A stretch of DNA of 64,000 nt from Candidatus Nomurabacteria bacterium (GCA_020632415.1 JACKFO010000002.1:386732-450731); one strand, 5' to 3'; numbered from the stretch's first letter, positions 1,961 to 54,979 are shown. Program-made: numbers and translations. Notes: a model not told the origin generated them from the sequence alone.

Positions 1961-3223
1961 TTATTTAACTGGTCCAACTAACAACTCCTCTGCTTCCCAA
2001 GGCTTGGCCATTACTTCATAAACCACCTGCTCCATTTTCATTCCTCGTGAACCTTTGATTAAAATCAGATCATCTTCTTTGATTCGATCTTGCAAAAAAT
2101 AACCAGCTTCAATTGTAAAAGGAAAATGAAAAATATGGTCTTCGTCCATCCCAGCGAGCAAAGCCCCTCTTTTGATATCCCTTGATCTTTCTCCGATCAA
2201 AAATAAATAATCAATTCCAGCAGCAAAAACTTGCTGACCAAGATCTTGGTGAGCTTTTTCCGTCTCTTTGCCAAGTTCTAGCATGTCTCCTAAGACTGCA
2301 ATTTTGCGCCCAGAACTTTCCATACTAGCTAAAATTTCAATAGCTACCTTTGAAGATTGTGGTGAAGAATTATAAGTATCATCAATGACCCAAGAATTTT
2401 TAATACCTTTGATCAAATTTGTGCGCCCTTTGGCCGGAATATATTTAGCCAATCCTTTTTTAATTTCAGCCAAACTAAAACCAAAATCCAAAGCAATCGC
2501 GATCGCCACTGCTGCCGCACTAGCATGTTGAGTTCCCAAAACTTTTGATAAAACAAATTCTTCTGTCTGACCTTGATAAGTCACTTGAAAAGTTGTTGCA
2601 AAATTAAAACCATTTTTAACGATCTTAACTTGACTCAACTTAATATCGCTTTGTTCTGCTTGGCCAAAAGAAAAAACTTTTGCTTTTGTTTTATTTCTGA
2701 AAGTTCTAATAAACTGATCGTCCTCATTTAAAATTGCCAAATCTTTTTCAGTAAGTCTGGCTAAAATTTGAGATTTTTCTTCAGCAATTTTTTCCAAACT
2801 ACCAAAAAATTCAATATGACTAGCGCCAATTTTAGTCAAAACTGCTACATCTGGTTTGGCGATGCTCGTTAAATAAGAAATATCTCCCGGATGATCAGCT
2901 CCCATTTCCAAAATTAAAATTTCTGGATATTTTTTATTTTTAAAAACGAGCAAAGAAAAAAAGCTGGAAAAAAATATTTTTAACCACTTCCAATAATTAC
3001 TCTGAGCTGAATTTTTGCCCAAAATAGTCAAGGGCAAGCCAATTTCATTATTATAATTTTTAATATTTCTTCTGACTTTATACTTTTCTTGCAACACAGC
3101 AAAAATTGCTTCTTTAGCCGAAGTTTTGCCAACGCTACCAGTAATAGCAATTACTTTTGGCCGATATTTGGCCAAAACTGCTTTACTTAAGAAACCCAAG
3201 ATAAAATATAAGACTTTTTTCAT
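1961..3223 (-). CDS. murF: UDP-N-acetylmuramoyl-tripeptide--D-alanyl-D-alanine ligase
   Basis: Mur ligase P-loop ITGSVGKTS; 420 aa; sits at the end of the dcw block immediately after ftsI. Confidence 0.8.
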   Translation of the reverse strand: MKKVLYFILGFLSKAVLAKYRPKVIAITGSVGKTSAKEAIFAVLQEKYKVRRNIKNYNNEIGLPLTILGKNSAQSNYWKWLKIFFSSFFSLLVFKNKKYPEILILEMGADHPGDISYLTSIAKPDVAVLTKIGASHIEFFGSLEKIAEEKSQILARLTEKDLAILNEDDQFIRTFRNKTKAKVFSFGQAEQSDIKLSQVKIVKNGFNFATTFQVTYQGQTEEFVLSKVLGTQHASAAAVAIAIALDFGFSLAEIKKGLAKYIPAKGRTNLIKGIKNSWVIDDTYNSSPQSSKVAIEILASMESSGRKIAVLGDMLELGKETEKAHQDLGQQVFAAGIDYLFLIGERSRDIKRGALLAGMDEDHIFHFPFTIEAGYFLQDRIKEDDLILIKGSRGMKMEQVVYEVMAKPWEAEELLVGPVK

Positions 3224-3228
3224 AAAAA

Positions 3229-6976: not shown

Positions 6977-7402
6977 TTAATCCTCTATTTTAAATTTATT
7001 TTTCTTTTTACTAATCGTAATCTCTGCTTGTTTGGCATATTCTGGTTTAATCGCGACAAACTTTTCTTTTTGTGCCAAATCATTTTTAGCTTTAGCTAAA
7101 ATTTCTTGCTCTTTTTCTAGATAATCAAAATAAGCAACAACCGGAATGCTCCATTGCCAGCCCAAACTATTTAAAATAGTAGTTGCGACTTTGACTTGAG
7201 TCAAACTGCTTTCTTTGATTGCCAAAGCTAAACCAGAAAGATCAGAAAAATCTATTGCTTCTTTAGTTACTAGCTGAGCCAACTCTGGCAAAATATTTTC
7301 TTCACCAACAAGCATGTCAAAATTATGTTCTTTGACTTGGTCATCATTCAACAAATGCCACTTGGCGTTATTATTGTCTAAAATGTTTAAAATTAAAATC
7401 AT
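6977..7402 (-). CDS. Hypothetical protein, weak TsaB/YeaZ-like (inactive Kae1-family) N-terminal similarity
   Basis: MILILNIL...IDFSDLSGLALAI resembles the start and first glycine-rich segment of TsaB, but the protein is short (141 aa) and divergent. Confidence 0.3.
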   Translation of the reverse strand: MILILNILDNNNAKWHLLNDDQVKEHNFDMLVGEENILPELAQLVTKEAIDFSDLSGLALAIKESSLTQVKVATTILNSLGWQWSIPVVAYFDYLEKEQEILAKAKNDLAQKEKFVAIKPEYAKQAEITISKKKNKFKIED

Positions 7403-7991
7403 CTAGTTGTTTATTTTTTATTTCTTTGGCCATTTTATCGATCACAACGATATTTTCATGCGACAAAATATCATAAATAAATTTATCTGTCACTTCAAGT
7501 CGATAAAAATAATCTTGTTTAGTCAAAAAAGTATAGCGTAAATTTCCCACCACACCTTCAGCAATTTTTTCTAAATATTTTAAGACATTAGTTTTATTTA
7601 CCTTACCGACAATCAAGACATCCGTCTGCGTCGGAACACCAGTCAAAACACCAGTCAAAATCAAAAGTTGTAAACCAGGAACCTTAGACATTTTGTTGGC
7701 CACCTGCATTTCTTCTAAAGTGGTAGCCTTAAAAATTAAATTTTTTAATTCATTTAGCAGTGGCCAAGATTTATTAACTTGATAAAATTTTTTAGCTTCT
7801 TTATTTTCTGATTCCAAAAATCCTATTTTAGTCAAATTATCCAACTCTCTTCTGACGGAATTAAGCTGAACACCTAAAACCCTAGTTAATTCGCGAACAA
7901 AAATCTGCTCATCTAAATGAAGACAAAAAAATCTAATAATCTTAGTTCTGGTCAATGATGAAAAAATTTGTTCTAACATTGGAAAGCTCAA
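7371..7991 (-). CDS. Winged-helix DNA-binding protein (putative transcriptional regulator)
   Basis: N-terminal IIRFFCLHLDEQIFVRELTRVLGVQLNSVRRELDNLTKIGFL is HTH-like; 206 aa; divergent from the 8062 gene. Confidence 0.4.
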   Translation of the reverse strand: MSFPMLEQIFSSLTRTKIIRFFCLHLDEQIFVRELTRVLGVQLNSVRRELDNLTKIGFLESENKEAKKFYQVNKSWPLLNELKNLIFKATTLEEMQVANKMSKVPGLQLLILTGVLTGVPTQTDVLIVGKVNKTNVLKYLEKIAEGVVGNLRYTFLTKQDYFYRLEVTDKFIYDILSHENIVVIDKMAKEIKNKQLDDFNFKHFRQ

Positions 7992-8011
7992 ATCGCTGTC
8001 ACGCGAATTTA

Positions 8012-8040
8012 TTTACTAAAATAAGCAAATATAGTATAAT
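8012..8040 (+). promoter_or_regulatory. Sigma70-type promoter for the 8062 gene (TTTACT-17-TATAAT)
   Basis: TTTACT 8012-8017, 17-nt spacer, TATAAT 8035-8040; ATG at 8062. Confidence 0.45.
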
Positions 8041-8061
8041 ATTATTTGCAAGAAATGTAAA

Positions 8062-10173
8062 ATGACAGAACTAAAAAAACAACGACTATTTATCCACGAT
8101 CACTTAAATTCTCGAGAATTATCCGAAATTTATTTGAGCGAAATTAGAACTGCTGGTCAGTTGTTTATTTTAACTGAGCTCCCAAAAGAAAAAAATGAAT
8201 ACCAAGCAATCATTGACCAAATCACTTCTGAAATAGGAAATTACTTTGAATCTAACTGTGAAAAAGATTCTGAAACTTTACTAGAAGAAATATTACAAGA
8301 ACTAAATAATTTATTACCAGAACTTGCCCCTCAAAAAAATAAGAATTGGTTTCAAAAAATTGACCTGGTTGTTGGTATTATTGCTGATAGCTCTATTTAT
8401 CTCGCTGGCATCGGTCAAATCGAAGCTTTGTTGATTAGTCATAATCAATTCACCAAAATTTTAGAAAACAGTGCGGAAATTAATCCTGCCAAAATATTTA
8501 CTGACATTATCGCCGGCCAACTAGACTCTGGCGATATTTTGATTATCTCTACTAATGCTTTATTTGATTATATTTCTCGAGAAAAAATTCGCTTAATTAC
8601 CCAAAAATATACCCCTCAGACTGCTGTTGATCAAATTCAAAAATTACTTGAAACTGTTCCTGATTTTGTTACTTTTAATTCTTTATTTATCAAAAATCCA
8701 GGCAACCACGACATTGAACTTGTTCAAACAAAAACCGAAGATGATTCAAATGATTATTCTATTTTAGAAAAAACTCCCCAAGAAAGACCACGAATTCAAC
8801 AGCAAAGAACTGAAAATATCAAAAAAAAGCAGAAAGAAAAAGTAAAAACTAAATTGGTTTTTGATAAAAATGGCTTACAAAATATTAAATCAATTCAAAA
8901 ATTAATTTTGGCTTTAAACTTAGCAAAAATTTATTTCTCAATTATTCACCAAATTTTTGCTAAAATATTTTCTTACTTAAAATCAGGATATTTGTTTATT
9001 TTTTCTAGTCGTTATCGTCGTCAAAGCGAAGATAGTTTATTAGAAAAAACTAAAGAGACTGTCCATAAAAAAGTAAATTGGTTCAGCTATTTGACTTGGA
9101 AGAAAAAAATACTAATCATTGCCCTATTGGTTGTTATTCTAATCTTTTTACAGGGCTTGGTATTTTTAACTCAAAAAAAAGCCGCCAATAAACAAGAGCT
9201 AAGCTATCAACAAAATATTCAAAGCATTAATAACACCCTAAATGAAGTAGAGGCTAGTCTAATTTATAATGATGAAAAAAGAGCTGAAGAATTATTGCTC
9301 AACATTCAAAAAATGCTAGATACTTTAAATGCCCAATCTCAAGAACAAGAAACAGAAATCGCTGAAGTTAAAGAACAAACTGCTCGTTTGATCAACAAAA
9401 TTCGTCATATCAACTACGTCTCAGATCCTTTAGAGCTATTTGATTTAAACGCTTTAAATAATTCTCAACAAATTGTCCAAAAAGAAGGAAGTTTTTATCT
9501 TCTAGATCAAGATGCTCTTTATTTACTCAAAGATAACGCTGTAGAAAAAATCAGCGATTTCCCAAATGGACAAACGCTTGCTGATTGGCCGAAACAAAAC
9601 AAGCTAATCTTAAGTGATGACCAAAAATATTATATTTTTAATTTAGACAATCAGAAAATCGAATCTTTTGAGTTTACAAAAAATAGCGGAAACACCAAAG
9701 TTCAAGATATGGCTATTTATAGCAACAATCTTTATGTCTTAGATGACGCTAATAGTCAAATTTTTAAATATCCAGAAAGAGGCTCATCTTTCAGCAACGG
9801 CTCCAGTTGGCTTAAAGAAGAAATAGATTTAAAACAAGCCTATAGCCTAGCTATTGACGGTGACTTGTATTTGACATTGGACAATGGCGAAATCAAAAAA
9901 TTACGCAAAGGAAAATTAGAAACTTTTAGCTATCAACAGCCACATCCGGTAATTGGGCAAAAAGCAATTATCAAAACCTTTGCTGAATCAGAATTGCTTT
10001 ATTTGATTGACCCCGATAACCAAAGAGTAATTATTTTTGACAAAGAAGGAAAAATAAAAGATCAATATACTTCGCCAAAATTTGATAGCTTAGTTGATCT
10101 GGCAATCGACAGCGAAGAAAAAGCAATCTATTTACTAAGTGGCAATCACCTATATTTATTAGCTATTAATTAA
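8062..10173 (+). CDS. Large membrane-anchored hypothetical protein (N-terminal PP2C/SpoIIE-like degenerate domain, TM helix, coiled-coil, C-terminal repeat/beta-rich domain)
   Basis: 703 aa; internal TM helix ILIIALLVVILIFLQGLVFL; N-terminal segment with DLVVGIIADSS...LDSGDILIISTNALFD reminiscent of PPM phosphatase motifs; K/Q/E-rich coiled-coil in the middle. Confidence 0.4.
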   Translation: MTELKKQRLFIHDHLNSRELSEIYLSEIRTAGQLFILTELPKEKNEYQAIIDQITSEIGNYFESNCEKDSETLLEEILQELNNLLPELAPQKNKNWFQKIDLVVGIIADSSIYLAGIGQIEALLISHNQFTKILENSAEINPAKIFTDIIAGQLDSGDILIISTNALFDYISREKIRLITQKYTPQTAVDQIQKLLETVPDFVTFNSLFIKNPGNHDIELVQTKTEDDSNDYSILEKTPQERPRIQQQRTENIKKKQKEKVKTKLVFDKNGLQNIKSIQKLILALNLAKIYFSIIHQIFAKIFSYLKSGYLFIFSSRYRRQSEDSLLEKTKETVHKKVNWFSYLTWKKKILIIALLVVILIFLQGLVFLTQKKAANKQELSYQQNIQSINNTLNEVEASLIYNDEKRAEELLLNIQKMLDTLNAQSQEQETEIAEVKEQTARLINKIRHINYVSDPLELFDLNALNNSQQIVQKEGSFYLLDQDALYLLKDNAVEKISDFPNGQTLADWPKQNKLILSDDQKYYIFNLDNQKIESFEFTKNSGNTKVQDMAIYSNNLYVLDDANSQIFKYPERGSSFSNGSSWLKEEIDLKQAYSLAIDGDLYLTLDNGEIKKLRKGKLETFSYQQPHPVIGQKAIIKTFAESELLYLIDPDNQRVIIFDKEGKIKDQYTSPKFDSLVDLAIDSEEKAIYLLSGNHLYLLAIN

Positions 10174-10184
10174 TAAAAAATCAA

Positions 10185-10222
10185 ACAAAAAATACTCTCA
10201 ATAATTTGAGAGTATTTTTTAC
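10185..10222. terminator. Bidirectional intrinsic terminator between the convergent 8062 gene and rplL
   Basis: AATACTCTCAA-TAAT-TTGAGAGTATT (11-bp stem) flanked by an A-run on one side and a T-run on the other. Confidence 0.75.
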
Positions 10223-10232
10223 TGATAAAAAT

Positions 10233-11192: not shown

Positions 11193-11362
11193 ATTATTAT
11201 ATTAAAAAATCTGCGTTATTTACCGCAGACAATGAAAATTCAAAAGATTTCTCACCTCGGCAGGATTTATATTTTAGCTAATTTTAGCTAAAAAACCTAC
11301 TATCTTTGGTAAATTAAACTATATTGTGTAAACATTATATACAAAAAATATCTTTTTGTCAA
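11193..11362 (-). promoter_or_regulatory. rplJL promoter (TTGACA-17-TATAAT) and L10-type leader with terminator-like attenuator hairpin
   Basis: Minus strand: TTGACA (revcomp 11357-11362), 17 nt, TATAAT (revcomp 11334-11339). About 130-nt leader ending in hairpin TCTGCG/CGCAGA (11210-11229) plus U6, about 10 nt before the rplJ ATG. Confidence 0.55.
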
Positions 11363-20706: not shown

Positions 20707-20740
20707 TATTTGCTAGATAAAATAAAACCACAAAATAAAC

Positions 20741-20772
20741 AAAAAACTCTCAAGATTTTGAGAGTTTTTTGT
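20741..20772 (-). terminator. Intrinsic terminator after the Ham1-like gene
   Basis: AACTCTCAA-GATT-TTGAGAGTT hairpin with flanking A/T runs. Confidence 0.7.
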
Positions 20773-21360
20773 TTATTTTCTATACTTTTCTGCAAAATTT
20801 GCAAAATCTTGTTTAAGTTTATCCCAAGAATCCTCTGTTTCTCTTTTTTCCTGAGGATTTAGCTCAAAATAATTTCTGCTACTAAATTTAGGAAATTCAC
20901 AAACAGAGCAGAGCCAAATTCCTGAACGATAAAACTTTGGGTTATAAACTTTAGCAATTTTCGCATCCATTGCTCTTTGTAAACTAGAAAATAATAATTC
21001 ACCATTATCAGCCACAGCTAAAGCTTCGTGCCACTCTAATCTTCTATCTGTTTTATTTTTCATCAACTCCAATAATTTATCAATTCTTTCTTGATCTGTC
21101 TCAGCAAATCTCTTAGTAGTTAAAGGATTCCAGTCATCCAGAGCTGGTATTACTGCTCCGCCGTCAGTAGAAATCGCCAATCCTTTTACCTGCCTTGAAT
21201 AAAAAATCGCCTTGTTTTCTGCAATTTCTAAAAAATTTTCACCAGATTCTTCAAATTCAAGATTATTTTCTAAATCAATAGGATCAAAATAATCTTTAAC
21301 TATTTCAATCAAAAAATTCCTTTTATATGGATTACCCGTGCCAATTAAAATATTTTTCAT
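20773..21360 (-). CDS. Ham1/RdgB-like non-canonical purine NTP pyrophosphatase (divergent)
   Basis: LIGTGNPYKR (compare ATGNxGK), EESGENFLEIAENKA (compare EETGxTFxENAxxKA), STDGGAVIPAL (compare ADDSGLxVDAL). One of the paired Asp residues is replaced. Confidence 0.5.
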   Translation of the reverse strand: MKNILIGTGNPYKRNFLIEIVKDYFDPIDLENNLEFEESGENFLEIAENKAIFYSRQVKGLAISTDGGAVIPALDDWNPLTTKRFAETDQERIDKLLELMKNKTDRRLEWHEALAVADNGELLFSSLQRAMDAKIAKVYNPKFYRSGIWLCSVCEFPKFSSRNYFELNPQEKRETEDSWDKLKQDFANFAEKYRK

Positions 21361-22440: not shown

Positions 22441-22467
22441 AATTAAAAAGGGTAGCAAAAGCTACCC
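22441..22467 (-). terminator. Intrinsic terminator after the VanX-like gene
   Basis: GGGTAGC-AAAA-GCTACCC perfect 7-bp hairpin followed on the minus strand by a U-rich tract. Confidence 0.7.
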
Positions 22468-22475
22468 TCGCCAAA

Positions 22476-23258
22476 TTAAGGCTCGGTATATGAGTAGAAA
22501 GCATCACAATGTTTAACTAATCCATCCATTTGATTACCATAATTAAAATGCCATATTTCCGGACCATAACAACTAAAGCCAGCCTTGACCATCGCCAAAA
22601 TCAAACAAGAGCGATTCTTAATAACCATGGCATCATTATCAGAGAATGCCTTCCTTCTAGCCTTCAGATGATAAAAAGTGCCCGCATCCTCTTTCATCCA
22701 ATCAAAGGGCACTCCCAAATCAACAGCAACGCCATCTCTAAATGGCCAGACATCAATTGATCCACCTGTAGCATGTGGACTTGGGACCATTGAATCTTTA
22801 GAAGGCCAACTCACATAAGCGCGATTTACATCAAACATTGCCGACTGTACATTTTTTGGCAATGTAAAAAAATAATTCCTAACATCATCACAGTCAACTA
22901 AACCCGAAAACCCAGCTGATAAATTAAATTTATCAGCAGTAAATTCTCTCATGTAATACCAGAAAAGTTTCTCCTGTAGCTCATAAGACCGCCAACCATC
23001 ATAAACGATTAAGTCAAACCCTTGATCCAACAGAATGCTCCTGGCCTTCAAGAATCTATCCAAAACTGAACTTCTAATAAAAATTCTATGATCCGTAGTC
23101 AAATGCATGGAATGACAATAATACGAATAACGCATTTCGCTAGGGATTTCCACTAGCAGATCATTATTTTCAATGATTCTCACTTTTCTCCAATCGCCAA
23201 ATTTGTAAGAAAAAAGTGTTTGAAAACGCACCAGCTGCAATTTGAGTTGATTAAACAT
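22476..23258 (-). CDS. VanX/DdpX-family D-alanyl-D-alanine dipeptidase (peptidase M15D)
   Basis: SPHATGGSIDV matches the VanX Zn-binding motif SxHxxGxAxD, EIWHF matches ExxH, DGWRSYELQ matches the DGYRP region. The likely start is MFNQLK (ATG 23256-23258) preceded by a GGAG SD. The TTG-initiated extension to 23324 in the ORF track runs through the leader hairpin and is unlikely to be translated. Confidence 0.7.
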   Translation of the reverse strand: MFNQLKLQLVRFQTLFSYKFGDWRKVRIIENNDLLVEIPSEMRYSYYCHSMHLTTDHRIFIRSSVLDRFLKARSILLDQGFDLIVYDGWRSYELQEKLFWYYMREFTADKFNLSAGFSGLVDCDDVRNYFFTLPKNVQSAMFDVNRAYVSWPSKDSMVPSPHATGGSIDVWPFRDGVAVDLGVPFDWMKEDAGTFYHLKARRKAFSDNDAMVIKNRSCLILAMVKAGFSCYGPEIWHFNYGNQMDGLVKHCDAFYSYTEP

Positions 23259-23305
23259 TTTCGCTTCTCCTCTGTTTTGAATGTGCTTTTCTTCATGATA
23301 TTTCC

Positions 23306-23392
23306 AACAAAAAACCACGCCCAAAATGGACCTGGCCTGTTAAAAATATTTAATTATTAAATCTATTTTACACCTAAAAAATTATTTGTCAA
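23306..23392 (-). repeat. Copy A of an ~87-nt duplicated promoter-plus-hairpin leader (TTGACA-16-TAAAAT, then GC hairpin plus U-tract)
   Basis: Near-identical to 25951-26037. Minus strand has TTGACA (23387-23392) and TAAAAT (23365-23370), then hairpin CCAGGTCC/GGGCGTGG (23315-23335) followed by UUUUUUGUU, upstream of the VanX-like start. Confidence 0.6.
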
Positions 23393-24362
23393 GACAAAAA
23401 GATGAAAGCCTATCAGAAATATACTTAACGCGTTTATTCAGTTTTTTTCTATTAATTTTTATAAAATTTTTAAAAATTTCTGAATTAGCTAATAACCCAA
23501 AAATTAAATCTTCGTAATTAAAACCTAACTGGTAAAAACCAAGGGCCACAAAATCATCGGCAGAGAGGGCTGGTTCACCGTTCATTTCTATTACTGTTGC
23601 TACTTGCTTATTTAATTTTAAATCTAGTCTACTGTAAAATTGAGTATGTAAATATTTATTAGATAAATTTGTAATATTTTTAATATTTTTTACTGATTTT
23701 TTTGATAAAACTGGATCGGTTAAAACTTGACTATCTAATTCCAAATTCTTTGCATTATAATCGTAAAATAATCCATTGTATTTAATTTCTATCGGATTCA
23801 TTATGATGGTCAAACCGCAAATCTGCAAGAAAACGCAAGTGAATTCCCTTCCAACAACATATTCTTCAAATAAAGGAATTTTATTATGTTTTAAAATTTT
23901 ATCCGAAGCTATCTCTTTTTCATTATTATTAAAAACTAAATAAACATCTTCACTAGAAGACCCATAATTATCTTTAATAATTATCGGGTACTTTAAATCA
24001 CGTTGCATTACATTAGACAGGGTAGAAAAAGTTGTTAAAATATTGTTATTGTTTAAAATTTGATTTGTATAATGTTTGTCTCTAAGAATTCTCAAAACCT
24101 CTTCTCTCTGTCCTATAAAATCTATGGAGTTATCATATATATACTTAAATAGCCTTATTTTTCTATATACATTATTTGTATTTGAGTCTATTACAAAAAA
24201 TAAATTACATTTTTTAATATTTCTAAAATTAATTTTTTTGTTTAAAGAAATTATTAAATAATCTATTTTGTGTTTTTGTAATATACTACAAATTTGCTCC
24301 AATGAATCCCTATTATACTTTCTCTCAATTCCCAAGCCGCCATATATTATTCCGATTCTCAT
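23382..24362 (-). CDS. Divergent Ddl-family ATP-grasp ligase (paralog 2)
   Basis: N-terminal RIGIIYGGLGIERKY (Ddl N-domain pattern), central YPIIIKDNYGSSSEDV (compare FVKPANLGSSVG), GREFTCVFL (compare GREIECAVL), C-terminal EMNGEPAL; 326 aa; very AT-rich. Confidence 0.55.
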   Translation of the reverse strand: MRIGIIYGGLGIERKYNRDSLEQICSILQKHKIDYLIISLNKKINFRNIKKCNLFFVIDSNTNNVYRKIRLFKYIYDNSIDFIGQREEVLRILRDKHYTNQILNNNNILTTFSTLSNVMQRDLKYPIIIKDNYGSSSEDVYLVFNNNEKEIASDKILKHNKIPLFEEYVVGREFTCVFLQICGLTIIMNPIEIKYNGLFYDYNAKNLELDSQVLTDPVLSKKSVKNIKNITNLSNKYLHTQFYSRLDLKLNKQVATVIEMNGEPALSADDFVALGFYQLGFNYEDLIFGLLANSEIFKNFIKINRKKLNKRVKYISDRLSSFCLDK

Positions 24363-24374
24363 AATCGCCTTTGA

Positions 24375-25034
24375 TCAAAAAATGATTACATTACCTTTTT
24401 CGGAAAAAGAATTAGAAAAATCCTCTCCAGAAATTTTCCAATTAGAATGCTCGTAACTCCCCTCTGACGAAGGATGGTGTAATATAAAATCATCTATTCG
24501 TCCATTTGAAACATCGGTCCCAAAAATCAAAACCAAATGACCACCTCTAGGCATGACATCAGTGGAGCCATCAAGTTCTTCATATTTTTTACCCGCCTCA
24601 AACCCAACTGTAACAGATGCAATAACCATTCTTTGATTTTGAATATGTGTTGCAATTCTTTTAACATTAGCCCCAACAGACTCCCTAAATCCATCTAACC
24701 CCAAGGAATTACCTAAATCGACTAATCCTTGATGTTTCCAGCCATGCTCCTCATCATAAGCCCCTAGAGCTAAGCCACGATCTAATAACTCTTTTAATTT
24801 AAAATCTTGATCTGGATAATTTTTTAACAACACCATCTTTAAACAAGCTAGACCACAAATTCTTTCTGACCAATACTCTGCTTCATCCCAATTATTAAAA
24901 CCTTCTTTTTGATAATTTTCTTTAGTTAACCTTTGTGAGTAAAAAGGAACATCGCTAATTTCAAAATGCCCATCGATGATTTCCGATCTATTTTCAAATA
25001 AATTTTTAAATTTCATAAATATTGTGCCTTGCAT
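24375..25034 (-). CDS. Standalone C39-type (papain-like) cysteine peptidase domain protein
   Basis: ERICGLACLKMVL matches the C39 catalytic-Cys signature CGxACLxM; the downstream GGHLVLIFG supplies the His. 219 aa, no transporter domain. Overlaps the upstream ligase gene by about 11-29 nt. Confidence 0.5.
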   Translation of the reverse strand: MQGTIFMKFKNLFENRSEIIDGHFEISDVPFYSQRLTKENYQKEGFNNWDEAEYWSERICGLACLKMVLLKNYPDQDFKLKELLDRGLALGAYDEEHGWKHQGLVDLGNSLGLDGFRESVGANVKRIATHIQNQRMVIASVTVGFEAGKKYEELDGSTDVMPRGGHLVLIFGTDVSNGRIDDFILHHPSSEGSYEHSNWKISGEDFSNSFSEKGNVIIF

Positions 25035-25941
25035 TATTTAATAACCAAATTAAAACTTGATAAAAATTTAACCTCGAACCCAATGCCGAATAAATAAAAT
25101 TACTATCACTATATAAACCAGGAACGCTATTTACCTCTAAAAAATATACCTCCCCATTTTTAGACTCAATCAAATCAAACCTTGCTCCACCCTTAATCTT
25201 TAAAAAACTAGAAATAACTCTAATTTTTTCAAATATTTTTTTCTTATTCTTGCCATAATAATATTTATACTCACAAAAACCATCTTCGTATTTAGCTTTT
25301 TTGTCATAAAATTGAGAATTTTTCATAATAATTTCTACTATCGATAATGGATTATAATTTCCACAAGACTCCAACACACCCACCGTTAAAATTTTACCAG
25401 CAACAAATACTTCTGTAAAATTTTGATCATAATTATCAAATATTTTCCCATTAATATTCAAATCTATACTCCCACCACCTCTTATTTTTTTATGAACAAA
25501 CAAATTTTTCTTAACCTTACTAAATCTTAAATCAAAATTATCCAGTGGAGTATTTACATTCAATTTATTAACAATCCCTTTAAAAAATAACTTATCAAAA
25601 GAAACCACGGAAGTATATACATCAGAAAAAGTATAATCTACATCTAAATAATCTAAAATAGATGCCAAATGTCCACTCTCGCCAAAGGTGCCATGCAAAC
25701 AATTAAAAACTATAGAATTTTTGGACAATCTATTAACCCAATCTTTGTCAACAGACGGATCAATCATCTCTATCTGCCAATTATTATTTAGTAATAATTC
25801 ACGCTTCACGGCTTCCCCTGAATACAAAGAAGCCTCTCTTTCTTCTCCGAATCCACCAAAAAATATATAAATTTTTTTACTCTTTAGATTATTTTCAATT
25901 TTAGAAAAATTATCTAAAAAAAATTTAACATTATCATTCAT
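25006..25941 (-). CDS. Divergent Ddl-family ATP-grasp ligase (paralog 3)
   Basis: KIYIFFGGFGEEREASLYSGEAV (Ddl N-domain), FNCLHGTFGESGHLASILDYLDVDYTFSDVYTSVVSFDK (compare FPVLHGxxGEDGxxQGLLElxxiPYvGxxvlaSAlaMDK), ARFDLIESKNGEVYFLEVNSVPGL (compare RVDFFLxxxGxxYLNEINTxPG); 311 aa. Confidence 0.6.
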   Translation of the reverse strand: MNDNVKFFLDNFSKIENNLKSKKIYIFFGGFGEEREASLYSGEAVKRELLLNNNWQIEMIDPSVDKDWVNRLSKNSIVFNCLHGTFGESGHLASILDYLDVDYTFSDVYTSVVSFDKLFFKGIVNKLNVNTPLDNFDLRFSKVKKNLFVHKKIRGGGSIDLNINGKIFDNYDQNFTEVFVAGKILTVGVLESCGNYNPLSIVEIIMKNSQFYDKKAKYEDGFCEYKYYYGKNKKKIFEKIRVISSFLKIKGGARFDLIESKNGEVYFLEVNSVPGLYSDSNFIYSALGSRLNFYQVLIWLLNNARHNIYEI

Positions 25942-25950
25942 AAGTTTACT

Positions 25951-26037
25951 AACAAAAAACCACGCCCAAAATGGGCCTGGCCTGTTGCAAATATTTAATT
26001 TGTATTATTATTCTACACCTAAAAAATTATTTGTCAA
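25951..26037 (-). repeat. Copy B of the duplicated promoter-plus-hairpin leader (TTGACA-16-TAGAAT, then GC hairpin plus U-tract)
   Basis: Minus strand has TTGACA (26032-26037) and TAGAAT (26010-26015), then hairpin CCAGGCCC-AUUUU-GGGCGUGG (25960-25980) followed by UUUUUUGUU, 12 nt before the paralog-3 ATG. Confidence 0.6.
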
Positions 26038-26045: not shown

Positions 26046-28850
26046 TTATTTTTTCTTATTTCCTTCCTTTTCTACCTCTGCAATCTGCTCCTTAGTAGCT
26101 AATGGTACTTGAAATTTAAAAGTACTTCCTTTGTCCTTACCTTCACTCTCTACCCAAATTTGACCATTGTGCTCTTTGATAATCTTTTGAGCGATAAATA
26201 ATCCTAAGCCAGATCCGCCGGTATTAATCTGTGCTGCACCATCACCACGTACAAATTTTCTAAATAAAGCCCGGGCATCTGCCGGCTCAATGCCAACACC
26301 AGTATCTGTACTGCTAAACTCCAAGACGCCATCCTTAACCTCTGTCCTGACTTTTATACTACCCTGCGGTGTATATTTGATAGCATTATCAACTAAGTTC
26401 AAAACAACTTCTCTTAATTTATCCCCATCAGCATAAATTAAAGGCAAATCATTTTTTTCATCTACGTAGCTCAAATCAATTCCTTTGTTTTGAGCAGAAC
26501 TAGCTAACTCAGTAAGCACACTGGCAATTAAAGTACTGATTTGCATCGGTTTTTTTTCTAACTTTAAACGGCCAGCTTCAATTCGAGAAACATTTAAGAA
26601 AACATTAATCGTTCGAGCAAGTCGAGAAGCACTCTCAAATAAATTTTCAATCAACTTGCTAATTTTTTCTGGCAAAGGCCCAAAGTCTCCTTCCATCATC
26701 ATGGATAAATATCCTTTCAAAGCCGACACAGGGGTACGTAATTGGTGAGAGGCAATCGACAAAAATTCAGACTTTGCTTTATCTAGAGCTTTCAAATGCA
26801 AATTAGCCTCATTTAAATCATAATTTACTTTTTGTAAATTTTCGTATAAAGCCAAGTTTCGAGAAACTATTCCAACTTGACTGGTCAAAGAAGTCATCAT
26901 CTCAATATCCAAGGGGGTAATTTTTTCACGCTCTATAGCCAACAAAAAGTGAACCACGCCAATGATTCGATCTTCAGAAAATATCGGCACACCAACTACA
27001 GTTTTAACACCTAATTTTTCTTGAATAATATTAATCACATTTTTCTCAACTGGGGGCGAGAAAAAATCACTCATTTGATGTGAAAAATTTATTTTTGCGG
27101 TCAAAACTGTATCCACACCATAATTATAACCCTCTGTTAACTCTGCTTCATAATGAAAAATGTCTTCTGGTAATAACTCAATATTTTCCTTAGCTTGTTT
27201 ATTTTTAGTAACCGCTTTAACGCGTAATTTATGATCACCGTTGACAAAACTCAAAACTCCGCCAATGTATCCTAACTCCGCAGCAATGCTATCAGCGATC
27301 ATTTGCGTCACCTTTTTTAGATCCAAAGTACGACTAACCATGTTGATGATCACCTGCATTGTGGTCAAATAACGGTTTCTTTCTTCTAAATTTAAATTTG
27401 CTTGCTTCAAACTTTCGGTTTTTTCATCAACTTTTTTCTGCAAATCACGGTTTAATTCTTGCACTTCTTCGTATAGCTTTGATTTCTCAATCGCCGTCGC
27501 AATTTGTGGAGCTAAAACTTTGAAAAAATCAATATCATCTGTTCCAAAAATATCTCCGGATAATTTATTTGACAAAACAAACAAGGCGTTAGTTCGGCCA
27601 TTTTCCACGATCGGGATAGCCATTTCTGCGCCAATATTTTCAAACTCTTGAATGATCTTTTCTGTACTTTGTTTTATTTTTTCATCTTTTTTTTCATCCA
27701 AGCTTCTGACCAATTCCTCAGTGATCACTAAGTCTTGATTGTGATCAAAGTATTCAACTACTTTTTCAGTTAATTTTAAAGTATTATTTTTTTCTTGCGA
27801 ACTGGTCGTCAACATAAAATAACCATTCTGCGGCATGAAAACTTTAATTTTTTTGATCTTCAATTGCTTGGTTAAAGAAATAACTAAACTGTGCAAAAGA
27901 TCTTCTAGATCGATTTCACGAGCAACAATTAAGCTGGCTTCTCGCAAAACCGCAGAATAATTAATTTTGTCTTTATAAAAAATTTGATCGGTAACCTTAG
28001 CCCAGACTCTTTTGATTGGGTCTAAAAAAACAACAATTAAAATAGAGCTCAAAACTGTACTAATAATTCGACCATTACGCGTGTCGCCGCCAATTCTTGG
28101 TGCTAACCAAAAAATAGAAAAGGCAAAAAAACTAGCTACTGTACCAACCAAAACAGTATAGAGAATACTTCGAGTGATTATTAATTTAATATTCATCAAA
28201 CGATACCTCACTATTGCATATGTAATAGATATAATATACAAACCAACCAAATAATTCCCAACTGGATACACTTGAGAAAATTGTGGTAAAAAATTAAATA
28301 CTCCACCACCAAAACCAAAAAAAGCGGAATACAAAACGTATCTTATTTGCTGTTTCTTCATTCCGTACTCCTGATTCCCTATTTTTATTAATATAAAAAT
28401 TGAAAGACAAGCTAAAAATAAAAAAAATAATGGAAACAAAAAATAAATTGGACCGGGCTTTATCCAAAATTTAAAATTAAAAACGGACTCTAGCCCACTT
28501 TTAAAAAGTGTAGAGAAACTCAAAGCCGACAAAAAAAATGCAAAATAATACCCAAATCGAAGAAATTTCTTTAATTGATTTTGCTTATTAGTTAAATTAA
28601 TTACAAAATGAAAAAATAGTATTGGTATAAATATACCAGAAATATCTAATACTACTTGAGAAAAATAAGCCAGCTTGAAATTATCAAAATAAGTAACGCC
28701 GGCCAACCCAAGACTCCATAAAGCAGTAACAAAACTAACACTAGCCCATATTTGATTCAATTTAAATTTATTTTTTCTAAAAAAAACAAAACTAGCTAGT
28801 CCTAAGCTTAAAATTCCCGTTATTAAACTAGATAAAGAAAAAGCGCTCAT
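26046..28850 (-). CDS. Sensor histidine kinase with N-terminal multi-TM (HisKA_7TM-like) domain, GAF domains, HisKA and HATPase_c
   Basis: About 7 N-terminal TM helices; H-box SHQLRTPVSALKGY; N-box VLNLVDNAIKYTP; G1 DTGVGI; G2 GGSGLGLFIAQK; 934 aa. No response regulator in the window. Confidence 0.85.
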   Translation of the reverse strand: MSAFSLSSLITGILSLGLASFVFFRKNKFKLNQIWASVSFVTALWSLGLAGVTYFDNFKLAYFSQVVLDISGIFIPILFFHFVINLTNKQNQLKKFLRFGYYFAFFLSALSFSTLFKSGLESVFNFKFWIKPGPIYFLFPLFFLFLACLSIFILIKIGNQEYGMKKQQIRYVLYSAFFGFGGGVFNFLPQFSQVYPVGNYLVGLYIISITYAIVRYRLMNIKLIITRSILYTVLVGTVASFFAFSIFWLAPRIGGDTRNGRIISTVLSSILIVVFLDPIKRVWAKVTDQIFYKDKINYSAVLREASLIVAREIDLEDLLHSLVISLTKQLKIKKIKVFMPQNGYFMLTTSSQEKNNTLKLTEKVVEYFDHNQDLVITEELVRSLDEKKDEKIKQSTEKIIQEFENIGAEMAIPIVENGRTNALFVLSNKLSGDIFGTDDIDFFKVLAPQIATAIEKSKLYEEVQELNRDLQKKVDEKTESLKQANLNLEERNRYLTTMQVIINMVSRTLDLKKVTQMIADSIAAELGYIGGVLSFVNGDHKLRVKAVTKNKQAKENIELLPEDIFHYEAELTEGYNYGVDTVLTAKINFSHQMSDFFSPPVEKNVINIIQEKLGVKTVVGVPIFSEDRIIGVVHFLLAIEREKITPLDIEMMTSLTSQVGIVSRNLALYENLQKVNYDLNEANLHLKALDKAKSEFLSIASHQLRTPVSALKGYLSMMMEGDFGPLPEKISKLIENLFESASRLARTINVFLNVSRIEAGRLKLEKKPMQISTLIASVLTELASSAQNKGIDLSYVDEKNDLPLIYADGDKLREVVLNLVDNAIKYTPQGSIKVRTEVKDGVLEFSSTDTGVGIEPADARALFRKFVRGDGAAQINTGGSGLGLFIAQKIIKEHNGQIWVESEGKDKGSTFKFQVPLATKEQIAEVEKEGNKKK

Positions 28851-32641: not shown

Positions 32642-33229
32642 TTAAGCTTTATATTTTTTTTGAAGAAAAATATGATAATCCTTATCTTTTTGAAGCTGCT
32701 GATCAATCAAAGACCTTAGCCAATCAGCCTTTGGCATACCTTCTGTTTGTGCACGCCAAGCTAAATAATCAGACATTTTTGGCGAAACACGTAAAGTGTA
32801 TTTAACGTTAATGATGTCTCTGCCGCTATCTTGATCTAATTTTTGCAAAAAATTTAACAAAATTTGATTAATATTTTTAATAGCGCAGGCTTTGATTTCT
32901 ACTTTATTTTTAAAATTTTTGTTATCACCCAAACTCTTCAAAGCTTTATTTTTTATTCCTTGTTGGTCAGTCAAAAATAAAACCGGCTTATTTTCTGAAA
33001 TTGCCAAAGCAACGAAATAGCTACTTTCCTCTGCTAAATTCTTCCCATAAATCACCAGGGCATCTGCCTGAGCCAAAGAGGCATCGCCGGGTTTGTTGGC
33101 ATTGAGATTACTAAAAGTTTCTACTTGCGCTTTACGCAAATATTGCAAAATAGCTCGACTGACTTCATTTTTTGCTTGACTATAAAAATAAACTACCATA
33201 TTATTTTTTAAAATTAACAAACTCATCAA
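32642..33229 (-). CDS. Hypothetical two-domain protein (flavodoxin-like N-domain; RHH-like C-terminal segment)
   Basis: No catalytic motif recognised; the C-terminal KMSDYLAWRAQTEGMPKADWLRSLIDQQL resembles a ribbon-helix-helix. Confidence 0.3.
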   Translation of the reverse strand: MMSLLILKNNMVVYFYSQAKNEVSRAILQYLRKAQVETFSNLNANKPGDASLAQADALVIYGKNLAEESSYFVALAISENKPVLFLTDQQGIKNKALKSLGDNKNFKNKVEIKACAIKNINQILLNFLQKLDQDSGRDIINVKYTLRVSPKMSDYLAWRAQTEGMPKADWLRSLIDQQLQKDKDYHIFLQKKYKA

Positions 33230-34190
33230 TTAAATTCGCTTTTAACATTTTTGGCCAATCACTCTCTGCGACATTTGCCATCAACCACAAAACTTTGGCA
33301 ATCACTGTTTCTTTGGTACAAGAACTGATGGTGCTAAAATCTTTTTCTTGTTGTAAATACTGAGGATGATAAAGAATCACTGTCTTTTCTAAAGATTTAA
33401 AATACTTAATCTGTTCAAGTGACAACTCTTCATCGTGTAAAAACACTAAAACAGCCTGATAATTTACAAAAGCTTCTTTGGGCCATAAATTTTTTTCCTG
33501 CAAATAATCATCAATAATACACAAACCTCGGGACAAATTCTGATATTTCTTGGTCAAATTTTTAGAATAAGCTAAATTATTTTTGTAACTAATCCCAAAA
33601 TCTATTTTAGCCAAATAATCGTCATCAACACTGCTCAATACATATTTTCCTTGTTGATACTCTAATTTTGCTTTGATGCCAGCAACCAAGCGACTGCCAA
33701 ACATCACCGCTACTTGTGCCAATTCTTCTCCTGCTACTTGCACAGCATTAATCAAATTGGATCTCAAACCCAAACCCCCTTGATTAGCAATCAGATCTTG
33801 CATGATTTCCTTTTTTTCTTTGGTATAAGCTCCGCTCATTTGTGAAGCGGTAACTACGATAGTTTTTTTAAAATTTTGCAATAAAAAATTCAAAACCGTA
33901 GCAGTCAAAATAGCTCTTTCTGCTTTGGTCACCACAACAAATCCGTCATAATCTGCTTCTTTTTTGATAATCAAGGTTGCTAATTTTTCCCATAAAGAAA
34001 AACTAAGCTGCGCTTCTTCATTGACCACAAACTCTGTTTCTACTGCTGACAAAATTCCTAATTCTGGCATAGTATTGAGCCATAAATCAACATCACCAGT
34101 GTTATTGACTGCCAACATATTTTTTGCCTTATCAACTGTCCAAGTACCACCGGCTAAGAGTAAACAAATTTTCTTCTTAGTTTTGGTCAT
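33201..34190 (-). CDS. L-asparaginase/GatD-family protein with degenerate second catalytic motif
   Basis: LLAGGTWT (compare TGGTIAG); YDGFVVVTKAERAILTATVLNFLLQNFKKTIVVTASQ aligns with AnsA [24 protein letters not shown]...VIVTGSQ, with HGTDT replaced by TKAER. Confidence 0.5.
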   Translation of the reverse strand: MTKTKKKICLLLAGGTWTVDKAKNMLAVNNTGDVDLWLNTMPELGILSAVETEFVVNEEAQLSFSLWEKLATLIIKKEADYDGFVVVTKAERAILTATVLNFLLQNFKKTIVVTASQMSGAYTKEKKEIMQDLIANQGGLGLRSNLINAVQVAGEELAQVAVMFGSRLVAGIKAKLEYQQGKYVLSSVDDDYLAKIDFGISYKNNLAYSKNLTKKYQNLSRGLCIIDDYLQEKNLWPKEAFVNYQAVLVFLHDEELSLEQIKYFKSLEKTVILYHPQYLQQEKDFSTISSCTKETVIAKVLWLMANVAESDWPKMLKANLIDEFVNFKK

Positions 34191-34891
34191 TACTGTTTAC
34201 GATTAAAGGCTACTAAATAAAATACAACTAAATTCATGGGTATAGTAAAGATTGGGCCAACCCAAATATATGAATGAATATCAAAATAATCTAAAAATAA
34301 ATCAAAGTACGCACCAACAACAAGGCCTATTAATATAGTAATAAATAAAAGCTTTGTCCCTAATTTAAAGTGAGATTCGATATTGACGTACTTAGACCAC
34401 AAAATATACAATGAATAACAAACCATGGCTATAAATAATAAACTATACAAAATATAAAAAGGCTTAAAATAAGTTACATAAACTTCGTGAGCATTATTAA
34501 TTCTACCAAAATCCAATATGTGAGTTTTCGTGTAAACAACAAAAGAAATAGCAATCGAAACTCCAATGATAATATTTCTATGAATTTTCTTTATTACTCT
34601 AGTTGGAAATGGAAAATAAAAAATGAAATAAAATAAAAATACAGATATAAACCAAGCAGAAAGATAAGAAGTTTGAAAGAAAAACTTAGAAACGGTCAGG
34701 TCAAAAAACGCTAAACTAACAAACAAACTAGTGCCCCAGCCAAAACAAGAAAGAGCCAACAAAGAGAAATAAAGATTAATTTTATTTTTTACACCTCTGC
34801 TCAAGATAAAAATGGCCATGCCCAAATTAATCAAAGCAGATATTAACAATAACCAATTTTTCCAACCCAAAGGTGATGTTAAAAAATCCAT
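34190..34891 (-). CDS. HisKA_7TM-like multi-pass membrane protein (no kinase domain), paralog a
   Basis: 233 aa, about 7 TM helices. The N-terminus (LISALINLGMAIFILSRGVKNKINLYFSL) is paralogous to the N-terminus of the 26046 histidine kinase and to the two neighbouring genes. Confidence 0.5.
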   Translation of the reverse strand: MDFLTSPLGWKNWLLLISALINLGMAIFILSRGVKNKINLYFSLLALSCFGWGTSLFVSLAFFDLTVSKFFFQTSYLSAWFISVFLFYFIFYFPFPTRVIKKIHRNIIIGVSIAISFVVYTKTHILDFGRINNAHEVYVTYFKPFYILYSLLFIAMVCYSLYILWSKYVNIESHFKLGTKLLFITILIGLVVGAYFDLFLDYFDIHSYIWVGPIFTIPMNLVVFYLVAFNRKQ

Positions 34892-34895
34892 ATGT

Positions 34896-35585
34896 TTAAT
34901 ATTCTAATTTCTTATCTTTTTTTAAAAATATTAAATAAAATGCTACAAAATTAATAGCCAAAGTAAATAGTGGACCTAAATAATAAAATCTAAATTCATC
35001 AAAATACATGGCGTACAAATTAAAATAGCTACCAGCAGCAACTCCGACTATCACCCCTAATAACACCAAGAATATTGATCTTTTAAAAATCTTATCTGCC
35101 TTCAGGTATTTTAACCATAAATGCACAATTGCTAGCAACATTAAAATACTTAAAACAATTGTAAAGATTAAGTAAGCGATCGGCTCATAAACAACCGTAT
35201 TTAAATAATTAATTTTAACGGATAAAGAAAATTTTTGGTAAAAAAATAAAAAATACAACGAAGCTACATAAAAAATAAAACTAAGAATCTTTTTAAAATA
35301 ATCATTTAAATTTACATTTTTAAAAGGAAAATGAATCGTAAAATAAAAAAGATTTAATACTACTAATAAAGATGCAAAATAAATAAAGCTAGCAGAAAAT
35401 CTGACAACTTCATAATTATTACTCAACCTAAACAATAATAAACCACCAGCCCACAAAATATTAAAAAAGGTCATCAAGGAAAAGTACTTATTTATTGGAT
35501 TTTTCCAACCGCGCCTAATAATTATAAGGCTCATTATCAAATTTAATATCGCTGCTAAAAATAAAAGTAAAGCTTTATAATCCAT
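34896..35585 (-). CDS. HisKA_7TM-like multi-pass membrane protein, paralog b
   Basis: 229 aa; LAAILNLIMSLIIIRRGWKNPINKYFSL shares the RG-KN-INxYFSL motif. Confidence 0.5.
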   Translation of the reverse strand: MDYKALLLFLAAILNLIMSLIIIRRGWKNPINKYFSLMTFFNILWAGGLLLFRLSNNYEVVRFSASFIYFASLLVVLNLFYFTIHFPFKNVNLNDYFKKILSFIFYVASLYFLFFYQKFSLSVKINYLNTVVYEPIAYLIFTIVLSILMLLAIVHLWLKYLKADKIFKRSIFLVLLGVIVGVAAGSYFNLYAMYFDEFRFYYLGPLFTLAINFVAFYLIFLKKDKKLEY

Positions 35586-35594
35586 ATAATTAAA

Positions 35595-36959
35595 TTATTT
35601 ATTTGCTAATAACAAACTACCAACAGCAATGTCTAAATATTTTTGAATATTTTCCATAAATTGCAACTGCTGACGAGATAGTAATTTTTGTCCATGGTCA
35701 ATAATCAAAACTCCTAATAATTGTTGATTATAAAAAATTGGCAAGGCTAAATCAATTTGCTGTTTTTGTAAAGCCACTGCCAAATACTTATCTTCCTGCC
35801 AATAATCAAGCTCCGCCTGATGAATCAACTTGCTCTGGCTTGCCAAAAACTGCAATAGTTGACTATCGTTTAAATTTAATAAACGCTCACCAACTGGAAA
35901 AACTTGATGAAAAACCTCATGATTATTATGCTTAGCCAAATAAACAAAAATTTCTCGGTAGCTAATCACCTGACTTATTTCTTTGGCTAGTTGCGAAAAA
36001 AGAGTATTCAAGTCTCTAGTTGAACGTAAAATTTCAGCAATGCTTAACTCTGCTTGTTTTATTTTTTGATTAGGATTAAAAAATAAAAGATTTACTAAAC
36101 GAAATAAAAATTTATACAACCATGGAGAGGTGAGCCCGATAAACAAAACAAATAAAATTTGGTCTAAGACATTTTTAAAATCTAAATCAATAAAGTTTAA
36201 TAATAACCAGAAAATCAAATAATAAATCACCAAGACAATAAATAAAGTCAGTAAATCAATTGCGCTTTTAGAAAATGATAATTTTAAATCCAAAAAACGA
36301 TCATGCGAAAGAGCATAAACCAAAACAATCGTAAAAAATACCGAAGAGTCAACGCCAATATAAAATAATGACTTAATATTGATCAGAGGTAAAATAACGC
36401 TAAACAACAAACCTAGAATAGCTGTAATTGCTGTACCAAAAAAAATATAATCAATTTGTTTTTTGATAACCAAATTTGCTTGCCGACGATTTTTCAACAA
36501 AAAAGATAGAGCAAAAATTAACAAAGCAGCAAAATATATACTAAAAAACCAATACAAATAACCTTGTTCAAAAACAAACCCGCTTTCAGTCAAAGTGACC
36601 GACTTGACATTATAAGCAGTAAACAAAAAAGGAATCGCCACAATCGCTGGTAAAAATAAAGCATTTTTTTTCCAAGCTACTAAATTTTTCCACAAACCAA
36701 ACAAAGAAAAAACCAGCCATACAAAGGCTGGAGCCAAAAAAAGATTAGGCAACAAACCAAAACGAGCGCCTAATAATAAATGATCTGTTCCTCGAAGCCA
36801 AAAAACATTAGTCAACTCAATTACCTCCCAAAGAGTAATCAAAAAAATTAAGACAAAAAGCGGCACTCTTTGCTGCTGTTTTTTATTTAAGCCAACATAA
36901 ATCAATAAAGTGATATTGATCGCCAAGGCCAGCCATAAAATAAGATTAGCTAAAGTCAT
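35595..36959 (-). CDS. 7TM sensor-domain protein with C-terminal GAF-like domain and no kinase output
   Basis: 454 aa; N-terminal 7TM region paralogous to the above; C-terminal roughly 150 aa with a GAF-like pattern (…LAVALQKQQIDLALPIFYNQQLLGVLIIDHGQ…). Confidence 0.5.
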   Translation of the reverse strand: MTLANLILWLALAINITLLIYVGLNKKQQQRVPLFVLIFLITLWEVIELTNVFWLRGTDHLLLGARFGLLPNLFLAPAFVWLVFSLFGLWKNLVAWKKNALFLPAIVAIPFLFTAYNVKSVTLTESGFVFEQGYLYWFFSIYFAALLIFALSFLLKNRRQANLVIKKQIDYIFFGTAITAILGLLFSVILPLINIKSLFYIGVDSSVFFTIVLVYALSHDRFLDLKLSFSKSAIDLLTLFIVLVIYYLIFWLLLNFIDLDFKNVLDQILFVLFIGLTSPWLYKFLFRLVNLLFFNPNQKIKQAELSIAEILRSTRDLNTLFSQLAKEISQVISYREIFVYLAKHNNHEVFHQVFPVGERLLNLNDSQLLQFLASQSKLIHQAELDYWQEDKYLAVALQKQQIDLALPIFYNQQLLGVLIIDHGQKLLSRQQLQFMENIQKYLDIAVGSLLLANK

Positions 36960-54899: not shown

Positions 54900-54979
54900 A
54901 CCCTATCTCGGCGCCAATATAAGTACTACTTTGCGGCGCTTTTCTTTTTGTCAAAAATCTTCCCCAAAAAAACTCCTTG

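Follow-up and report, generated by a model that had tools for sequence, protein, structure and literature searches.

We describe a short noncoding element that occurs twice in a 64-kb stretch (hereafter the window, whose positions are used throughout) of the 842-kb genome of a Candidatus Nomurabacteria bacterium, a member of the candidate phyla radiation (CPR). One copy, A, lies before a cassette of three genes encoding a Ddl-like ATP-grasp protein, a Peptidase_C39_2-like (C39_2) protein and a second Ddl-like ATP-grasp protein, and the other, B, lies before an M15 (VanX-like) dipeptidase gene, which is how a first-pass annotation of the window had identified and placed these genes. Judged by its sequence and by its conservation in relatives, the element is a real, selected leader and not a chance repeat; it is a conserved promoter-plus-leader module of one Nomurabacteria clade and of a known general kind, the promoter-proximal terminator or attenuator. 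On balance, we favor the view that it is a promoter-proximal attenuator module and that its two copies go back to an insertion. The features of the two copies are the following.

25951-26037, minus strand: element copy A, promoter plus leader hairpin, before the Ddl-like/C39/Ddl-like cassette; homology to relatives reaches about 19 nt farther upstream, to 26056
26032-26037, minus strand: -35 hexamer of copy A, TTGACA; none of the five complete variants departs from TTGACAAA
26010-26015, minus strand: -10 hexamer of copy A, TAGAAT, after a 16-nt spacer
25954-25982, minus strand: hairpin of copy A, GGCCAGGCCC-AUUUU-GGGCGUGGUU, with one G.G mismatch, plus the U6 tract
23306-23392, minus strand: element copy B, by its flanks the native leader of the M15 (VanX-like) gene
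23387-23392, minus strand: -35 hexamer of copy B, TTGACA
23365-23370, minus strand: -10 hexamer of copy B, TAAAAT
23309-23337, minus strand: hairpin of copy B, GGCCAGGUCC-AUUUU-GGGCGUGGUU, in which a C>U change retains a G.U pair, plus the U6 tract

The first-pass annotation had described two near-identical leaders of about 87 nt, and the alignment bears this out: the copies agree at 77 of 87 positions (88.5%), and the homology extends to 101 nt at 85%, taking in the ATGAA of the downstream start at an equal offset. The pair is the longest direct repeat in the window, and a search for the hairpin with 3 mismatches allowed found only these two sites there, with 0 expected in shuffles. The promoters that had been proposed are present in both copies, with 11 of 12 hexamer positions matching in each (TTGACA-16-TAGAAT at 26037-26010 in copy A, TTGACA-16-TAAAAT at 23392-23365 in copy B), and they account for two of just three such matches in 16 kb. 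With their hexamers, a spacing within 16-18 nt and conservation in homologues, they have what would be expected of sigma-70 promoters. The hairpin, too, is as it had been described, including its one G.G mismatch in a stem of 8-10 bp: it reads GGCCAGG(C/U)CC-AUUUU-GGGCGUGGUU (25982-25958 in A, 23337-23313 in B), begins 27 nt past the -10 hexamer and is followed by U6-GUU. The start codons come 9 nt past the element in copy A (25941) and 47 nt past it in copy B (23258).

A GC-rich stem-loop followed by a U-rich tract on the transcribed strand is the sequence form of an intrinsic terminator, and the folding energies are strand-specific. The 40-mers that comprise hairpin and U tract have values of -20.2 (A) and -14.1 (B) kcal/mol on the minus strand, with z about -4, and merely -12.3 and -4.3 kcal/mol on the plus strand; the 25-nt stem-loop alone has -15.7 and -13.0 kcal/mol. 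This range of -13 to -16 kcal/mol falls in the middle of that for the 15 other folded terminator-like hairpins of the window (-8 to -30), all of which have uninterrupted stems. As the element hairpin is as stable as the terminators of the genome, it should terminate transcription. The ten differences between copies A and B spare the -35 hexamer, positions T1, A2 and T6 of the -10 hexamer, the U tract and the stem pairing, the sole stem change being the C>U that retains G.U. Each copy thus retains an intact promoter and hairpin, which upholds the earlier proposal that the two transcription units share one duplicated control element.

Relatives of the element were gathered from contigs encoding C39 and M15 homologues and from a pattern scan of Joint Genome Institute (JGI) metagenomes. 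Four further variants were found, at the same two kinds of genes; the conservation extends over three other metagenomic genome variants of Nomurabacteria type.

Variant C (loci L004, L005, L007 and L040): before the orthologous cassette
Variant D (L029 and L044): between an AMP-binding gene and the cassette
Variant E (L033): between an AMP-binding gene and an M15-type leader
Variant F (L053, a contig that starts within the hairpin): before an M15 gene with 65% identity to that of the window

Invariant across the variants are TTGACAAA, TAnnAT at 16-nt spacing and CCA..CCCAUUUU(U)GGGCGUGGUUUUU. The promoter has the form TTGACA-16-TA(G/A)(A/G)AT in 5/5 complete variants, with changes in the -10 hexamer at positions 3 and 4 and not at T1, A2 or T6, and the distance from the end of the -10 hexamer to the stem is 27 nt in A and B, 25 nt in D and E, and 11 nt in C. 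In the comparison of the window with L029 and L033, the element is 83-85% identical, the flanking genes are 65-78% and the cassette is 67.6% identical, making the element the best-conserved segment of the whole syntenic region. Conservation above that of the flanks rules out recent transfer as its cause and points to purifying selection. Within the hairpin, GGCCA, CCC, the loop AUUUU(U), GGGCGUGG and U5-6 do not change, and 29 of about 31 positions stay the same between lineages whose coding sequences diverge by about 30%; only two bases of the 5' arm vary freely, reading GG, GG, C-, UA and UU. Three variant bases (U8 in B, U6 in D/E and U6 in F) pair only as G.U in minus-strand RNA, one by a change from G-C to G.U and two as U.G pairs at the variable site, which favors a structure in RNA (or in a single strand) over a palindrome in duplex DNA. 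A homologous leader was not found at the cassette loci L008, L010, L013, L017 and L022, nor at the M15 loci of more distant CPR (L054-L057), and its absence from other cassette loci speaks for restriction to one clade.

As an attenuator, the element would act in the following way. The near-consensus promoter would start a transcript about 7 nt past the -10 hexamer, and this transcript would reach the terminator hairpin and U tract some 20 nt later (about 3 nt later in one variant). The hairpin would terminate transcription that arrives from the co-directional upstream gene, would also halt part of the transcripts of its own promoter prematurely, and the downstream genes would be expressed only via read-through. 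The terminator does lie between the promoter and the gene that would be regulated, and neither before the M15 gene nor before the cassette did the window and variant sequences contain a conserved promoter downstream of the hairpin. Because the M15 gene is widely conserved in CPR, read-through would have to be either substantial or inducible. Promoter-proximal terminator leaders are well known, for example from the Bacillus subtilis pyrG gene, the trp genes controlled by TRAP, the hut genes controlled by HutP and the sac/bgl genes with their overlap of terminator and ribonucleic antiterminator (RAT), as well as from leaders in which Term-seq detected premature termination. The element resembles them in its order of promoter, short leader, GC-rich hairpin with U tract and gene, a layout that implies expression via read-through, and in being one leader common to functionally related units. 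In contrast to them, it has no antiterminator helix, leader peptide, RAT, UAG/GAG repeats or ANTAR dual hexaloops, and unlike in the named attenuators, its leader is just about 50 nt long (about 35 nt in variant C).

The genes between and around the two copies bear on the origin of the duplication. On the minus strand, the order starts with an AMP-binding enzyme, an acyltransferase and a HAD hydrolase, followed by a histidine kinase and copy A, and then continues as listed.

26046-28850, minus strand: 7TM-GAF-GAF histidine kinase, ending 8 nt before copy A
25006-25941, minus strand: cassette gene 1, divergent D-Ala-D-Ala-ligase-like ATP-grasp protein of 311 amino acids (aa), ATG at 25941
24375-25034, minus strand: cassette gene 2, Peptidase_C39_2-like protein, 219 aa
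23382-24362, minus strand: cassette gene 3, divergent Ddl-like ATP-grasp protein, 326 aa, followed by copy B
23259-23305, minus strand: remainder of the M15 leader, with the Shine-Dalgarno sequence GAGGAG at 23272-23267
22476-23258, minus strand: M15/VanX-like dipeptidase homologue, 260 aa, locus tag H6761_02055, ATG at 23258, with the GAGGAG Shine-Dalgarno sequence
22448-22469, minus strand: ordinary terminator with a perfect stem, 3' of the M15 gene
22442-22413, minus strand: promoter of the canonical ddl gene (22406-21357), after the M15 terminator and thus in the usual order of terminator, then promoter

The stop codon of the 326-aa Ddl-like gene (23384-23382) lies inside the promoter spacer of copy B. 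Homology between copy A and variant E begins 19 nt upstream of the -35 hexamer, and that between copy B and variant E begins at the -35 hexamer itself. On the other side, the right flank of copy B, ATTCAAAAC...GAGGAG, is a shortened form of the M15 leader common to E and F, which are about 75% identical to each other over about 58 nt past the hairpin. By these flanks, the M15 gene has copy B as its native leader, and copy A carries the ancestral left flank; with the ancestral left junction at A and the ancestral right junction at B, the cassette splits a once-single site. Locus L033 is such a site in its "empty" form, without the cassette. The bracketing of the cassette by the two copies, on which the first-pass annotation had drawn no such conclusion, looks like the footprint of an insertion by recombination at the element. 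A circle bearing element and cassette would integrate by a single crossover within the element (Campbell-type), which would leave each unit with its own copy, and recombination between the direct repeats would make the insertion reversible, such that the cassette may also leave. Two variants show traces of exchange: variant C carries about 45 nt of the 3' end of the AMP-binding gene as a passenger, and variant D is a mosaic: its left part matches E exactly, its right part matches C exactly, and the crossover between them falls in TTTTGGGCGTGGTTTTT, within the hairpin. Of the 61 open reading frames (ORFs) in the window, about 45 were checked, and these included no integrase, transposase or other recombinase; ordinary homologous recombination is therefore the simplest mechanism, for which the 87-100 nt of homology would suffice. 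Joint control of the two units may therefore have arisen first as a side effect of the insertion, and both copies have since been retained intact.

Several observations weigh against an attenuator with such an origin. Minimum free energy and centroid folds show just the hairpin and an AU extension and no antiterminator, there being no second C-rich partner for GGGCGUGG in the leader; no conserved small ORF or leader peptide overlaps the hairpin, the leader holds no known protein-binding motif, and in variant C the 16 nt that separate start site and hairpin are missing. In DNA of 34% GC, promoter-like matches occur often (77 found against 68 expected), although matches at 11 of 12 positions are rare. 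The six variants, which come from just four independent lineages, contain no compensatory double substitution, and the freely varying central bases of the 5' arm face an invariant CG in the 3' arm, an asymmetry. The mosaic variant D could be an assembly chimera; as a counterpoint, two assemblies show the junction, and the shared stretch is just 17 nt. Taken together, a leader without a competing helix, peptide or known binding motif and a variant without the segment between start site and hairpin imply that any control would have to act on the hairpin itself. As the hairpin is nearly invariant where structure alone suffices for a terminator, it is probably recognised by a trans-acting factor. 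Regulated attenuation is plausible but unproven. A more specific proposal, which we consider doubtful, is that the terminator stem of about 30 nt, with its nearly invariant sequence CCA-NN-CCC-AUUUU-GGGCGUGG-U5-6, might be a very small riboregulatory element of CPR and the docking site for a protein or ligand that sets read-through. This partner would couple the accessory cassette with the gene for the D-Ala-D-Ala dipeptidase, and the sequence would double as the recombination handle by which the cassette moves between sites.

Some further candidate features were set aside. In a by-eye check, a sigma-54 match, an alternative downstream promoter, a leader peptide and a T-box-like UGG/CCA logic were not conserved among the variants. 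An AU-rich extension of the hairpin helix outperforms shuffled flanks in just two variants, B and E (p ~0.02), but not in A, C or D, and we do not claim it.

The rival that we take most seriously, although we think it unlikely, is constitutive packing, in which the hairpin would be no more than the terminator of the upstream operon; in a compact genome, the next promoter would have come to lie directly before this hairpin, and a slightly weakened stem would allow a fixed, unregulated read-through that needs no factor. This would agree with the lack of an antiterminator and with the co-directional gene that ends 0-20 nt before the -35 hexamer in all contexts, and the genome does overlap a promoter and a terminator at 63.7 kb, where, as in the element, the terminator of the upstream gene and the next promoter lie within tens of bases and the promoter is upstream of the hairpin. 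It would also agree with the one central stem defect of every variant, which leaves dG values of -11 to -16 kcal/mol as against -18.9 kcal/mol for a perfect stem; having exactly one defect is, however, not significant (~0.06, an estimate from few lineages), and we dropped the never-perfect stem as evidence. More telling is that a plain terminator needs structure and not sequence, yet nearly all hairpin positions are invariant, and sequence rather than layout alone is conserved between genomes. Moreover, new transcripts would escape the hairpin at 63.7 kb, whereas the complete hairpin and U tract of the element would be transcribed. At that site (63684-63760, plus strand), an extended -10 (TGTGTTATAAT) stands 4 nt before an AT-rich hairpin and T run, past the stop of the upstream gene, and this short distance should put the start site inside the hairpin, an arrangement different from that of the element. 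The first-pass annotation had seen the site as a sign that a terminator behind the next promoter may be a lineage habit, and this was mostly wrong: among 36 terminator-like hairpins in the window, an 11/12 promoter within 75 nt upstream occurs only at A and B, and the usual order elsewhere in the window is terminator, then promoter. A further candidate for the order of promoter, then hairpin, at 46041, turned out to be an ordinary terminator followed by a promoter.

The near-consensus promoter with a competent terminator behind it could also be a small RNA gene, yielding a trans-acting RNA of 35-55 nt while downstream expression would be incidental, and the AU-rich 5' segment AAUU(A/G)AAUAUUU, conserved in A, B, D and E, would suit such an RNA. 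We regard this as improbable, since variant C has lost the 5' segment and its RNA would be the hairpin alone, since the element always stands directly before a gene without another conserved promoter, and since just two gene types carry it and no target is evident. Marginally less probable still is a site that acts as DNA, the imperfect palindrome being the operator of a regulator or an attC-like recombination site that captured the cassette, with the promoter as a passenger. Like integron cassettes, the cassette is bracketed by an imperfect hairpin repeat, in two direct copies, and mosaic D has its joint within the hairpin; the AAC...GTT flanks and the mid-stem defect further recall the R boxes and extrahelical bases of attC sites. 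Known attC sites have R''/L''-L'/R' boxes and lengths of 57-141 bp, though, and the element, with about 38 nt from AAC to GTT (about 46 nt with full R boxes), is shorter than these and matches RYYYAAC/GTTRRRY only partially. In contrast to integrons, there are two copies and no array, no integrase in the scanned ORFs, a promoter inside that is as well conserved as the hairpin, and homology long enough for RecA; the three G.U-only changes fit RNA and not a duplex palindrome. A generic dispersed repeat, such as a miniature inverted-repeat transposable element (MITE), a repetitive extragenic palindromic (REP) sequence or a Correia-like element, with incidental motifs that resemble promoter and terminator, is largely refuted and very improbable. 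The element is indeed a short repeat with an internal hairpin, and another hairpin family is reused in the window, at 10.2 and 20.7 kb. Against this stand only two copies in 64 kb, no additional copy in 468 kb of related loci (fuzzy and nhmmer scans), and neither terminal inverted repeats nor target duplications. In scans of three collections, 2 genome matches to the hairpin pattern were both due to chance in GC-rich coding DNA, just four of 24 metagenome matches to a looser pattern were homologous (L029, L033, L040 and L044, at the same two locus types), and 0 of 3 viral matches were. Copies were thus found only at two orthologous locus types, which supports the view that the element is specific to its locus type, as the first-pass annotation had held, and not the MITE-like repeat that it had named as the finding that would overturn its view.

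To our knowledge, almost nothing is known of gene regulation in the CPR (Patescibacteria), which cannot be grown alone and have few recognisable regulators. Here, a short noncoding element is better conserved than the genes around it, shows an unambiguous order of promoter, then terminator, and is attached only to genes of the D-Ala-D-Ala ligase and dipeptidase type. It is clade-restricted and lies outside Rfam, which gave nothing at the gathering threshold or at a permissive one (the nearest family, L20_leader, reached 19.4 bits against 58.7, E=1.4); ARAGORN found nothing, and a full-text literature search retrieved no paper on intrinsic terminators and promoters of Patescibacteria. The element would be a concrete, clonable candidate for transcription attenuation in CPR, for which about 100 nt of DNA suffices for an in vitro test. 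The leader may double as a homology handle, as illustrated by the natural recombinant joined inside the hairpin, and with the cassette between two copies, gain of the cassette would automatically yield co-regulated units. If the element is a mere packed terminator plus promoter, it would be an ordinary feature of a compact genome.

The first-pass annotation had further suggested an inducible cell-wall remodelling system of the Van type. Like vanHAX operons with VanRS, the locus groups a VanX-family M15 homologue with additional Ddl-family ligases, and a histidine kinase gene adjoins them. In contrast to these operons, no VanR or other response regulator and no VanH or other dehydrogenase was found among the about 45 ORFs scanned, the kinase is of the 7TM-GAF type and absent at that position in relatives (where the AMP-binding gene lies beside the element), and the promoters are near consensus and not activator-dependent in form. 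For both cassette ligases, Ddl is a far better match than VanA. With about 170 close homologues in CPR, the M15 protein is widespread there, and its gene lies within two genes of the canonical housekeeping ddl in 3 of the 4 lineages whose contigs were read; its 260-aa start is backed by about 120 homologues, mostly of 256-268 aa. The suggestion of a Van-like system does not hold up against these data. The window as a whole is core chromosome, with genes for ribosomal proteins, tRNA synthetases and glycolysis as well as mraZ/mraW, ftsW and bacA.

Some side observations concern the kinase and the cassette. Upstream lies a cluster of paralogous HisKA_7TM membrane proteins and kinases (33201-36959 and 26046-28850 in the window; 1-1752 in L001), and no response regulator was present among the ORFs scanned. 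The triad of ATP-grasp, C39_2 and ATP-grasp genes (window 23382-25941) recurs as a conserved cassette in several lineages of CPR as well as in Endozoicomonas (loci L004, L008, L010, L013, L016, L017-L019 and L022). Its combination of a papain-like amidase with ATP-grasp ligases recalls glutathionylspermidine synthetase/amidase. In Berkelbacteria, the triad stands among polyamine genes, with an AdoMet decarboxylase on one side and agmatinase and a deoxyhypusine-synthase-like gene on the other. In L022, it lies three genes downstream of the canonical ddl, after SHMT and a methyltransferase. In L004, the cassette (with an Amidohydro_2 gene) lies between two 87%-identical pairs of divergent TehB-like methyltransferase genes (2437-3830 and 7310-8747), a segmental duplication.

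Others concern the M15 leaders. The ATGAA with which the Ddl-like gene starts in copy A is retained in copy B, where it opens a 38-codon ORF (MKKSTFKTEEKRKC..., window 23296-23180, minus strand). This reading frame overlaps the M15 start (23258) out of frame and may be either an upstream ORF or a remnant of the duplication. The stretch of about 58 nt that the M15-type leaders of L033 (13281-13372) and L053 (26-90) share past the hairpin (GTYATRTTCAATT...GATTCAA..GTTCATTGAAAAA) has short, mutually exclusive AU pairings; in L033, it leads to a 5-codon stub (MFFDN*) and a 121-aa zinc-ribbon gene in place of the M15 gene. Upstream of an M15 homologue on another CPR contig (L057, 7640-7800), a TTGACA-17-TATAAT promoter precedes a stretch of about 150 nt that is GC-rich, looks structured and ends in a T run, a leader without an Rfam match.

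Among other hairpins, a perfect one in L037 and L047, AAAAACCACGCCC-ATTTTT-GGGCGTGGTTTTT, is intergenic in an unrelated genome and has no upstream promoter, and we take it to be an unrelated terminator. The second reused hairpin family of the window consists of long AT-rich terminator hairpins on the minus strand at 20732-20779 and 10184-10223, 10 kb apart, both with ACTCTCAAA-N-TTGAGAGT as their core and TTTTTTGTTT as their tail; the element, too, has the TTTTTTGTT tail. A -10 block nearly identical to that of the 63.7-kb site occurs at 54966-55004. Finally, the window contains a ribosomal protein L10 leader (Rfam RF00557) at 11193-11327 on the minus strand, which scored 44.3 bits against a gathering threshold of 44.

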